Shown: piece by piece, positions 9,912 to 19,097 of the stretch
Layout: the number at the start of each line of letters is the position of its first letter
Numbering within the stretch: the first letter of the stretch is position 1
Origin: Rickettsiales bacterium
GTDB lineage: Bacteria; Pseudomonadota; Alphaproteobacteria; Rickettsiales; JABSSG01
NCBI GenBank assembly: GCA_040221415.1
Contig: JAVKEN010000022.1
Coordinates: 57,439-121,438 of the forward strand
Direction: 5' to 3'
Length of the DNA stretch: 64,000 bases
The notes under the pieces: model-generated
What the model was told of the DNA's origin: nothing
The model's database searches: none
Seen by the model: the letters and a program-made list of their open reading frames with translations, nothing else
Program-made: the position numbers and the translations under genes

Positions 9912-12900
9912 TCATAGACTATTTCTTCGGCTTTTTTTACCTTCACCTTCCACTGGCGGAGTGCGAACTGGTGATTTAGACCCACTAACATCTTCTGCTG
10001 GTGCTACACTGCTGCCAAAGAGCCCATCAGATGCACTCCTAATAGAACCTGCTGAAGCTGTTCTCGTTATACGTGCTGGTGTGACTCCTCCGTCTCTCAC
10101 TACCGCTGCAGCTGCACCAAGAAGCTTTGTTTTTTCAAGGTCTTTTTGCATTTTCTCAATTAATTCTGGAGCTAGCTTACTTTCTCCAAATTCCTTACCA
10201 TTTTCCAAAATAGTTATGCTGCTTACAACAAATTTCTCTTGTTTTTTGTCATAGCTATATTCAATAGAGTCGTATGCCCCTTCTAAATTATTACCAAATT
10301 CGTCAGTTCTAGGAATTGTAAAAGAGAATTTTCTACCTTCTACACCTTCTTTGCCTTCTATCCCCGAAGCTTCTAACGACGTAATAACATTATTTTCATC
10401 TTTGTGTATTTCAATTACACCTGCAGGCTGCTTATCAGAAGCAAACAGAGAAAACTTCTCAACGCCAGCTTCAGTTTCAACTGTTGTGCCTTGCTCTTGC
10501 TGCTTTTCAGTGACTTTATTATGGACTGCGTGATTCACCTGAGCACGACGCTGATGGATGTTTTCTTTAACAGATTCAGGAATTCCTGTTAAGCCACCAA
10601 CCTTAGAGCCTTCCAACGCACTATGTAATGCTTTGGCGTATCTTTCTTTCTTTTTAGCGCTTTCAGTTTTAAGATTGCTATTTTCATCAAATTCCATACC
10701 AAGAGCAGTAGCAGATGTTGTGATTTCTGTATGTGGATCTGAAGCGCCTATTGCATATCGGTTTGTAGTTTTGCCTTCATCTTTAGAAGGATCTTTCGTA
10801 TCAGCATCAGCAAAGAATTTGACCATCTCTGCCAGAACTTCTTGACGCACACCACCAACTGCTACTGCCAAAGTTGGCTTTTTTCTTGGTGGCGGTGGTG
10901 GTGGTGTTGGTGTAGTTGATTCATCTCCTGATGTTTGTATTACGCTAGACTCCCCTTTTTCTGCAGGTTTACTACTAGCACGAGCAGCAGCACCTGGTTC
11001 AGCACCTTGACCTGGTTCGCCACTTGAAACACGTGCTCCACCCTTACCTCCACCTGGTTCGGTGCTTGGAGTTCTAGGATTAGGTTTACCCGCTCCACCT
11101 TTTCCTGGCTCAGCTCGTCCTTTTTCCTCAGGTTCAGGCACACCAGCGCCACCTTCTCCTGGAATCACTGCATCTCTAACTTTTTCCTCAGGTTTTGCTG
11201 TAGGCTTAGGTTTACCCGCTCCACCTTTTCCTGGTTCTGTTCCTTCATCTTTTGCGCTTGCTACATTAGATTTCAATGCTCCTAGAGCTCTTTCTTTATC
11301 TTTTCGAGCTCTAAACGCTTCGGCTTTTTTGTTTAACTCTACTTCTCTTGCCGCTTCTGCATCTTTAGCCGCTTTTTCTGCAGCAGATCTACTACTAGCA
11401 TGATCAGCAGCACCTGGCTCAGCAACTCTTCTTACACTCCCGCCAGTGCGACTCGCCCTTCCACCTGCCTCATCCGCAGTTTGTCGAACGCGTGATTTCT
11501 TGACTGGAAGCTTAGGTTTACCCGCTCCACCTTCTCCTGGAGTCACTTCATCTCTAACTTTTTCCTCAGGTTTTGCTGTAGGCTTAGGTTTACCCGCTCC
11601 ACCTTTTCCTGGTTCTGTAGCAGGAGCTACTGACTTACCCCCCTCAGCTAATGGTCTTGGTGTACCTACTCCACCTTCTCCTGGCGGGGTTTTATCCTCA
11701 GCTACCATCGCTTGTTGCTCTGCTGCCGCTCTTTCTGCTGCTGCCGCTTCTATGCGTTTAGCCTCTTCAGCAGCCCTTCTAGATGTTTTATTCTCTACTC
11801 GATCACCGACTTCGGGCAAACCTTCTTTTTCCACTCTAGCCCTGTCAGCCGCTGCTGCCGCTGCCGCTGCTCTTTTTTCTTCTCTTTTTGTTTCTTCTTT
11901 GGCCAAACCCTCTTCTGCCGTCTGTCTCTTAGCTGCAGCTATAGCTGCTTCCATTCTTGCAGCATCTCTGCCACCAGCTTTACGAACTTGTTCAACTGTT
12001 CGATTAACATCTGCCTTTACAGCTTTTGCTGATGCAGCCTGTTTTCTTGCAGTTGTATGCGCCTCTTTAACCACTGCTTTTTTACTTTCAACTACTTCTT
12101 CCATACCTTGAGCTTTAGCATGAGTCTGAAGAGCAGATAATTTTTTACTAGCATCTTTTAAAGCTGTATTTTCTTTTATGAAGTCAACTGCTTTACTTAA
12201 AGCTTCTCTTTTCTTTTTAGGATCCCGCTCACAGAAAGCTGCGCTCTTAAGTTCTGAATATTTACTTTCTAAATCTTTGTCTTTTCTGCCCGGTTTACCA
12301 TGAACTCTTTCAGCCTCCTGCGCCTCTATAAGGCCAGCTTCCATTAATGCTTCTCCAGCAGCTTTTGTTTTGCCAATGCCAAGTTTTTTGACAACTCGAT
12401 CTCTTGTACCCTTATCTGGGATTACATCAGGTAAAATGTCAGGCAAAATATCTTCTACATCTTCCCTTAGCCCCTTATCATAAGCAATGTATGAGGCTGC
12501 GTCAGTTAGGCTTCCCGTTGGGTGATCTTCATTACCTCGCACAAATGACTTAAAATATTTTCTAAGCACGGGTTTTAATTCGCTTCTGCGTTCATCATGA
12601 GATAAATCACTTCTACTCGCTAAATCTGCAATATTTGAAATTAAAGCACTTTGTTCAGGTAAAAGCTTGATCTCACGCTTCCTTGCTTTTGCGGATGCTA
12701 ACCGAACAGCTGGTGCCTCTCTTCCTTTTCTTCGCCTCTCTGATGCGACCTTTCTTCTTGCAGCTGCCATTTGCTGTTTATTATGTATATCAAGCGGCTT
12801 ATCTGCTTTACTCTTCTTATTTCTCTTCGTTGACAATTTAGGTTTAGGAGCTGACGCTGGCTCTGCTTTTTGCCTACTTGCCTCATCACCAACACCTTTA

Positions 12901-19097: not shown

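Follow-up and report, generated by a model that had tools for sequence, protein, structure and literature searches.

What kind of gene is the 9.2-kb open reading frame (ORF) that lies within a 64,000-nt stretch of contig JAVKEN010000022.1 from a Rickettsiales bacterium, and what might its product do? We use "the window" for that whole stretch and "the giant" for the ORF and its 3061-residue product. The original prediction, made from the letters alone, had described a single 9.2-kb ORF in what appeared to be a reduced AT-rich genome. The ORF is present at 9912-19097 on the minus strand, which had been left unstated, and analysis of the window bore out a genuine, intact, very large low-complexity gene (Table 1). 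The exact protein is deposited at NCBI as MEQ9116226.1 (locus RLN62_05475) in a metagenome-assembled genome (MAG) labeled "Rickettsiales bacterium," where the gene lies on a 130,791-bp contig with neighbors RLN62_05460 to RLN62_05480. We tentatively favor a reading in which this native, intact, lineage-specific gene encodes a long polycationic chain that would be exported to a host cell and act there as a multivalent scaffold or tether; taken jointly, its parts fall somewhat short of an even likelihood.

The reality of the gene was examined from its composition and from a second assembly. Calculated from base composition, the chance of 3061 stop-free codons at 44.7% guanine plus cytosine (GC) is approximately e^-174, and GC by codon position (0.581/0.511/0.247) has a coding-type pattern. 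The many shadow ORFs reported on the opposite strand are also there (within the gene, the plus strand has ten that reach 100 aa or more, with a maximum of 358 aa) and are explained by the same codon bias as the GC excess. The start codon is uncertain, with in-frame ATGs at codons 36 and 42; no clear ribosome-binding site was found 5' of the GTG, and promoter and terminator scans gave signals at or below the shuffled expectation.

In the Logan assembly of run SRR26209243, a 9,897-bp contig (L001) matched window positions 11200 to 1325 with no mismatches, the sole difference being a single 21-nt indel inside the downstream 1406-aa gene. L001 is an independent assembly of a sample that is not necessarily independent, as the run may be the MAG's own. 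It confirmed the last 428 codons of the giant (the 3' 1289 nt) in frame, together with the downstream genes to position 1325, past the gene for a gene transfer agent (GTA) g12-type protein. The original prediction had named stops or frameshifts in independent assemblies as signs of a pseudogene; none occurred over these 1289 nt, the rest of the gene lying outside L001. The contig ends at position 11200, within an identical 70-nt repeat, which is probably the behavior expected of a de Bruijn assembler at a real repeat with two contexts. A literature search on the run, locus tag, and accession returned no match.

The gene had also been called a GC-rich island. The base counts behind this description were exact (38/60 GC at 17161-17220 and 19/60 at 50101-50160), and GC is raised, although modestly (44.7% in the gene versus 38.3% in the rest of the window); the ORF at 26651-28582 is richer in GC (48.8%) than the giant. 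Any implication of foreign origin did not hold, since the GC content at third codon positions (0.247) is within the range of 16 other window ORFs (0.21 to 0.31), and on this ground a horizontally acquired island was rejected. The excess falls at the first two codon positions and reflects the abundance of Ala, Gly, Pro, and Arg in the protein, encoded by GCN, GGN, CCN, and CGN/AGR codons. The giant gene is native and not foreign DNA. The practical result is that the "GC island" is a by-product of amino acid composition and no evidence of gene transfer.

No relative of the giant was recovered. Exhaustive phmmer of aa 1863-3061 against 1.84 billion cluster representatives found only the giant itself, as did a word-indexed search with the whole protein, which is of limited sensitivity and scored the 8000 most word-sharing candidates; aa 1-1862 were covered by the latter search and by family libraries. 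Pfam, NCBIfam, PHROGs, and PADLOC assigned no family, and PDB sequences gave no match at E values up to 1. There was likewise no match by tblastn to 50,697 phage and 72,556 plasmid records or in peptide-seeded scans of JGI metagenomes and IMG/VR, and genome-contig scans with GTA g12 and with the terminase retrieved no close relative genome. The contig index had no entry for the giant or for the 227-aa protein. By these searches the giant appears to be an orphan, lineage-specific and in no known family. An apparent likeness to the 490-aa upstream ORF disappeared under composition correction and was compositional. A beta-domain that seemed, by eye, common to the giant C terminus and the 422-aa and 1406-aa proteins was rejected as well (BLASTP E values of 0.33 or worse).

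The architecture of the protein was characterized next to its composition, which is dominated by Ala (17.2%), Lys (12.6%), Glu (9.3%), Arg (8.3%), Ser (8.0%), Gly (7.0%), and Pro (6.4%). The statement that almost no hydrophobic core-like sequence follows the first ~250 aa proved overstated: residues 1501-1700, 2101-2300, and 2801-3000 contain 22 to 30% VILMFWYC, like the N terminus. No signal peptide was obvious at the N terminus by inspection, and no transmembrane segment was found in the protein (maximum 19-aa hydropathy of 1.0). Pfam gave only chance-level matches for aa 1-275 (E value of 0.11) and aa 2140-2340 (E value of 0.14).

A single-sequence AlphaFold model of aa 745-1944 was 70% helix, with helices of up to 99 residues and coil between them at Pro/Gly-rich stretches; its confidence was low (mean predicted local distance difference test [pLDDT] score of 51.7, with 228 residues at 70 to 90). 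Among the helical tracts, which the original prediction had described as kilobase-scale, heptad periodicity is limited to a single stretch. Residues 1703-1903 showed strong 3.5-residue hydrophobic periodicity by Fourier analysis of hydropathy (z = 11; 0 of 500 shuffles as high), with modeled helices at aa 1721-1799 and 1809-1874, whereas ten other proline-free tracts showed none (P values above 0.07). Because the periodicity occurs only there, most Ala/Lys/Glu/Arg tracts are more likely to be disordered or to form single helices than to make canonical coiled coils. For aa 2735-3020, a single-sequence AlphaFold model reached a pLDDT score of 43.8 and gave no Foldseek match in the PDB at an E value of 0.001 or better. 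Together, the predictions depict a very long and flexible polycationic chain, in which helices (some of ~100 residues) and one coiled coil of ~200 residues are linked by Pro/Gly-rich hinges and a few small modules of ordinary composition.

The repeat systems described earlier were recovered, and further ones emerged at the protein level. The identical 70-nt repeat (11171-11240 and 11549-11618) belongs to a longer, 99-nt repeat whose copies are 96% identical. The bipartite duplicated module pairs 16807-16909 with 17257-17359 and 17149-17243 with 17482-17576, both at 94% identity. Six PGxGGxG units make up the PGKGGAGKPKP-type repeats, and the polyproline tracts comprise one PPPPP and one PPPPPP. 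In the protein, recent copies lie at aa 507-539 and 618-650 (94% identity), 578-632 and 728-778 (71%), and 2494-2528 and 2620-2654 (91%). Thus, within aa 507-778 the segment AAAKSSPAPQPVAPSGPAKPEKPxRPGRPRK occurs twice at 94% amino acid identity and SDLSVGHSMADTATPVRRGAKxTKSNDK twice at 71% identity. Older copies are found at aa 805-916 and 1267-1383 (32 to 36%; E value of 5e-9) and at aa 455-499 and 925-971 (47%). Because DNA repeats of 94 to 100% identity coexist with older protein duplications of 32 to 47% identity, the giant gene has grown largely by internal duplication. A third copy of the IQ-plus-hairpin module carried by aa 805-916 and 1267-1383, suspected at aa 1605-1680, was discarded when a profile built from the two real copies missed it.

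A set of short motifs may point toward a host. A pattern, AAxx[IL]Qxxx[KR]G/Dxxx[KR], recurs in five helices (at aa 781, 817, 840, 1037, and 1304) and resembles the IQ motif. The first three motifs all fall within one predicted helix of ~99 residues, and the motifs as a set fall in predicted helices. A strict form, [FILVM]Qxxx[RK]Gxxx[RK], has 4 matches compared to 0.036 expected, and none of 20,000 local-block shuffles reached four. The motif was kept in both copies of the old duplication (aa 805-916 and 1267-1383).

A profile built from the IQ module of the giant also found a second gene in the window, at 40643-41797, encoding a 384-aa protein. This protein passes the Pfam IQ family (PF00612) threshold of 20.3 bits, scoring 26.4 bits as a protein and 31.3 bits as a peptide; its canonical motif shows that the organism encodes this eukaryotic motif. 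The motif DNA of the two genes is unlike, and therefore neither motif is a recent copy of the other. The motif of the 384-aa protein, AATKIQAAFRGYRTRKKLQR, appears to resemble closely the IQ of neuromodulin and neurogranin, which we offer as a lead. Hydrophobic stretches in the 384-aa protein were seen by eye only. Two paralogues lie directly upstream of it on the coding strand, at 41817-42626 (36% identity over 157 aa) and 42870-43832, and the trio (40643-43832) may comprise candidate effectors that insert into host membranes.

How might such a protein work? The gene status and chain architecture described above form the first two parts of the favored reading, and these are shown by the present analysis, as are the composition, the repeats, the motif enrichment, and the genomic context. 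Export, the secretion route, and all host partners we infer from motif enrichment, the lack of membrane or signal features, the charge of the tail, and the neighborhood. In this scheme, the giant would be exported from the bacterium into a eukaryotic host cell, probably through the Rickettsiales type IV (rvh) system, with the basic C-terminal tail as the possible secretion signal. Rickettsial rvh effectors RalF and RARP-2 have been reported to bind RvhD4 through their C-terminal tails (PMC11077975). Once in the host, the giant could serve as an extended multivalent scaffold or tether: its degenerate IQ-like helices would recruit calmodulin-type EF-hand proteins, its PxxP and polyproline tracts would attract partners of the SH3 or profilin type, and its large positive charge would favor acidic surfaces such as membranes, cytoskeleton, and nucleic acid. 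Calmodulin as a target has a precedent in Legionella SidJ, a type IV effector reported to bind host calmodulin via an IQ motif (PMC6858067). The "secreted scaffold or host-interaction protein" of the original prediction is thus plausible but unproven.

Several results weigh against this reading. The region aa 780-930 scores 17.6 bits against the PF00612 gathering score of 20.3, and the single motifs score 14.3, 12.0, and 14.1 bits, with the two others giving no match, all below 20.3; they are therefore called IQ-like and are not counted as members of that family. PxxP, nuclear localization signal-like, and GRP motifs are expected often in Lys/Arg/Pro-rich sequence and carry little weight, and a basic C terminus says little when the whole protein is basic. 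No secretion system genes, including rvh, are present in the 64-kb window, which is the DNA that was read. Both structure models are of low confidence, the searches found no homologue from which to transfer function, and the giant is known only as a predicted protein.

A more specific variant of the favored reading would have the giant translocated to serve as a "calmodulin sponge" or to mimic a myosin lever arm. It would be a polycationic chain of long single helices whose degenerate IQ motifs are loaded with host calmodulin or myosin light-chain-like proteins, and it would act with the polyanionic 1406-aa protein. The two proteins could, for example, come together through charge as a complex or condensate, either at the bacterial vacuole or on the cytoskeleton. 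We consider this elaboration a long shot; to our knowledge, no giant IQ-bearing effector class of this kind has been described.

Other readings place the protein within or on the bacterium. A cell-intrinsic structural protein (nucleoid-associated and histone H1/Hc1-like, a cytoskeletal filament, or a polar scaffold) is unlikely, with the following in its favor: the protein has neither signal peptide nor transmembrane segment, is extremely basic, has Ala/Lys-rich helices and one true coiled coil, and contains a KRGRPVKK and two RPGRPRK sequences that resemble AT-hooks in an AT-rich genome. The AT-hook reading was rejected, however, since no Pfam match to AT-hook families (or to histone-like or Hc1 families) was found and the count of GRP cores (three, of which a single duplication accounts for two) is near the ~1 expected from composition. 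At 3061 aa the protein far exceeds known nucleoid proteins; a core structural protein should have relatives, and the searches found none; and this explanation leaves the IQ motif enrichment and the effector-like neighborhood unexplained. A surface fiber or adhesin, delivered by a nonclassical or type I route to the bacterial surface or vacuole lumen, seems somewhat less probable again. Surface proteins are common products of very large, repetitive genes in bacteria, and the long rod-like predicted helices with hinges, as well as repeats that appear prone to copy number change, would suit such a fiber. But Pfam and NCBIfam detected no adhesin domain of any kind (autotransporter barrel, RTX, Big, and cadherin included), the N terminus has neither a signal nor an anchor, and the pI of 10.1 is at odds with the typically acidic substrates of type I systems; the Sca-type autotransporter and the RTX/type I adhesin were rejected as specific candidates on the family searches and the pI.

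That the ORF is decaying or functionless, its frame kept open by biased composition, or is an artifact of collapsed or expanded repeats, we regard as very improbable. Its singleton status without homologues would fit, as would the fact that the second assembly confirms only the last 1289 nt and perhaps derives from the same reads. Yet composition alone cannot give a 9.2-kb stop-free frame (antisense ORFs reach only 358 aa), GC by codon position is of the coding type, the old duplication retains recognizable motifs, and the Logan contig ends exactly in the 70-nt repeat, as a real two-copy repeat would presumably cause. Least credible of all, and failing every test applied, is a GTA or phage tail component such as an oversized tape-measure protein or fiber. 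The giant runs in the same direction as g12 (distal tail) and g13 (hub) and lies upstream of g12, and tape-measure proteins are long, helical, and Ala rich. However, no PHROG, Pfam, or NCBIfam tape-measure match was found, nor any match in the phage records or the IMG/VR scan cited above; three unrelated ORFs (108, 1406, and 422 aa) separate the giant from g12; and none of the upstream genes was identified as a major tail or chaperone gene. The GTA genes are themselves scattered, with the terminase among nonphage genes and a gene on the other strand between g12 and g13. The giant also lacks hydrophobic segments, and with each tape-measure residue corresponding to ~1.5 Å of tail, 3061 aa would imply a tail of ~450 nm.

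Comparison with known systems helps to place the exported scaffold that we favor. Anaplasma AnkA and the Ehrlichia tandem-repeat proteins are repeat-bearing secreted effectors of obligate intracellular Rickettsiales, the latter being acidic. Like these and Rickettsia RARP-2 and RalF, the giant is lineage-specific, repeat-bearing, and poorly conserved, and RARP-2 repeat number varies between strains (PMC11077975). Unlike them, it has no sequence similarity to any of the group and no ankyrin, protease, or Sec7 domain, and it is two to three times larger and polycationic; its secretion is proposed. In IQ proteins of the unconventional myosin type, IQ repeats are followed by a single alpha-helix, an arrangement that the giant resembles in that its AAxx[IL]Qxxx[KR]Gxxx[KR] helices are embedded in long, charged, Ala-rich helices. 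It differs from myosin lever arms, neuromodulin/neurogranin, and SidJ in that its motifs (12 to 14 bits) are below 20.3 bits, its calmodulin binding is putative, and it has no motor, kinase-fold, or other catalytic domain. TolA domain II, the TonB Pro-rich spacer, Chlamydia Hc1-Hc2, and histone H1 tails form extended rods or spacers; the likeness to these is one of Ala/Lys/Glu-rich helical or Lys/Pro-rich composition only. In contrast to TolA and TonB, the giant has no N-terminal membrane anchor, C-terminal TolA/TonB domain, or Pfam match, and it is ~ten times longer. With bacterial "giant genes" for surface or adhesin proteins it shares a length above 9 kb, internal repetition, and base composition off the genome average, but its compositional shift is confined to codon positions 1 and 2 and it has no adhesin-type domain, signal, or anchor.

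Large, fast-evolving, repeat-rich, low-complexity putative effectors are familiar in obligate intracellular bacteria; what stands out here is how large the protein is, its charge of +226, and its IQ-like motifs, of a type that a neighboring gene also has. If exported, the giant would rank with the largest effector candidates of an obligate intracellular bacterium and would be an example of a host-directed scaffold built from scratch by internal duplication of low-complexity sequence with eukaryote-like short motifs. With two proteins bearing IQ or IQ-like motifs in one 64-kb region, host calmodulin/EF-hand signaling becomes a specific target that can be tested for this uncultured lineage. Assembly breaks and repeat number variation are also likely to arise from the gene.

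Table 1. Features of the giant gene and of selected other genes in the 64-kb window (window coordinates)
Feature	Position	Strand	Residues	Description
Giant ORF	9912-19097	minus	1-3061	GTG start; 3061 aa; 326 kDa; isoelectric point (pI) 10.1; net charge +226
N-terminal region	18273-19097	minus	1-275	Ordinary composition; no transmembrane segment
Pro-rich bipartite duplication	16764-17579	minus	507-778	Rich in PxxP[KR] motifs
Cluster of three IQ-like motifs	16518-16766	minus	778-860	AARIQEAGKGFVAK, AATKLQAVAKGRAAK, AAIKTQAAKRGNDSR
Old internal duplication, copy 1	16350-16685	minus	805-916	IQ-like motif plus small hairpin/helix module (…ISFPKGKG…)
IQ-like motif 4	15939-16001	minus	1033-1053	AATKIQAAARDHSKRSVARK; 12.0 bits
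Old internal duplication, copy 2	14949-15299	minus	1267-1383	IQ-like motif AATMLQAAFKGKATR (14.1 bits) plus module (…ISMPREGG…)
Central region of ordinary hydrophobicity	13998-14600	minus	1500-1700	Beta-hairpin and short helices in a low-confidence model
Proline-free 201-aa stretch	13389-13991	minus	1703-1903	Only convincing coiled-coil candidate
PPPPP tract	12912-12926	minus	2058-2062	
Region of ordinary composition	12078-12680	minus	2140-2340	Helical look, by eye only
Gly/Pro repeat region	10998-11735	minus	2455-2700	Six PG[EK]GG[AV]G units; recent duplication with identical 70-nt core
PPPPPP tract	10887-10904	minus	2732-2737	
C-terminal beta-rich region, then helix	10113-10490	minus	2870-2995	Low-confidence model
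Basic C-terminal tail	9915-9989	minus	Last 25 aa	Net charge +4; ends …GKKSRRNSL
108-aa acidic ORF	9566-9892	minus		Q/E/N rich; begins 19 nt past the stop codon of the giant; no family match
1406-aa acidic ORF	5218-9438	minus		Net charge -103; no family match
422-aa ORF	3940-5208	minus		One hydrophobic segment; basic tail …KQKSRTRSNSI; no family match
GTA g12-type distal tail protein	3282-3878	minus		DUF2460 (E value of 6e-45); TIGR02217 (Rcc01695 family); end of co-directional string
613-aa multipass membrane protein	1444-3285	opposite to g12/g13		
384-aa gene	40643-41797	minus		Canonical N-terminal IQ motif AATKIQAAFRGYRTRKKLQR; basic C-terminal tail (+6)

The genes around the giant were also surveyed. 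The original prediction had the giant heading a co-directional string; instead, it sits in the middle of a minus-strand run that takes in the 227-aa and 490-aa ORFs upstream and continues well past them. The downstream order was as described, namely, the 108-aa, acidic 1406-aa, and 422-aa ORFs and then g12, identified by DUF2460 and TIGR02217, with successive gaps of 19, 127, 9, and 61 nt. A polycation (the giant) is co-directional with a polyanion (the 1406-aa protein), with the acidic 108-aa ORF between them; that the two form a charge-complementary pair is speculation. Near window position 5847, the 1406-aa gene has one QQASPPQ unit fewer than L001, which carries the extra 21-nt unit at its positions 5354-5374 and encodes 1413 rather than 1406 aa; this indel could be either a repeat number polymorphism or assembler collapse. 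Net-positive C-terminal tails are common among the orphans of the window, e.g., +4 in the giant, +11 in the 227-aa protein, +8 in the 490-aa protein, and +9 in the 613-aa protein.

GTA genes are dispersed through the window: g12 and the g13 hub gene (317-1126) are split by the 613-aa gene, and the terminase (34267-35664) lies 15 kb upstream of the giant and 30 kb from g12, among unrelated ORFs. Only about a dozen of the ~48 ORFs in the window have a Pfam or NCBIfam match, making this an unusually orphan-rich region with effector-like domains, and no tRNA or Rfam family was found in it. Recognizable products include ankyrin-repeat proteins (44760-45374 and 59083-62049), a class-3 lipase (43852-44760), a DXD glycosyltransferase (30436-31422), a pentapeptide-repeat protein, and a GyrI-like protein. 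Finally, seven consecutive strongly acidic ORFs (pI 4.1 to 4.6) occupy the minus strand at 22332-30418; they have no family match and no BLASTP paralogy among themselves, and several of them end in Gly-rich …G(S/G)HTG-like tails.

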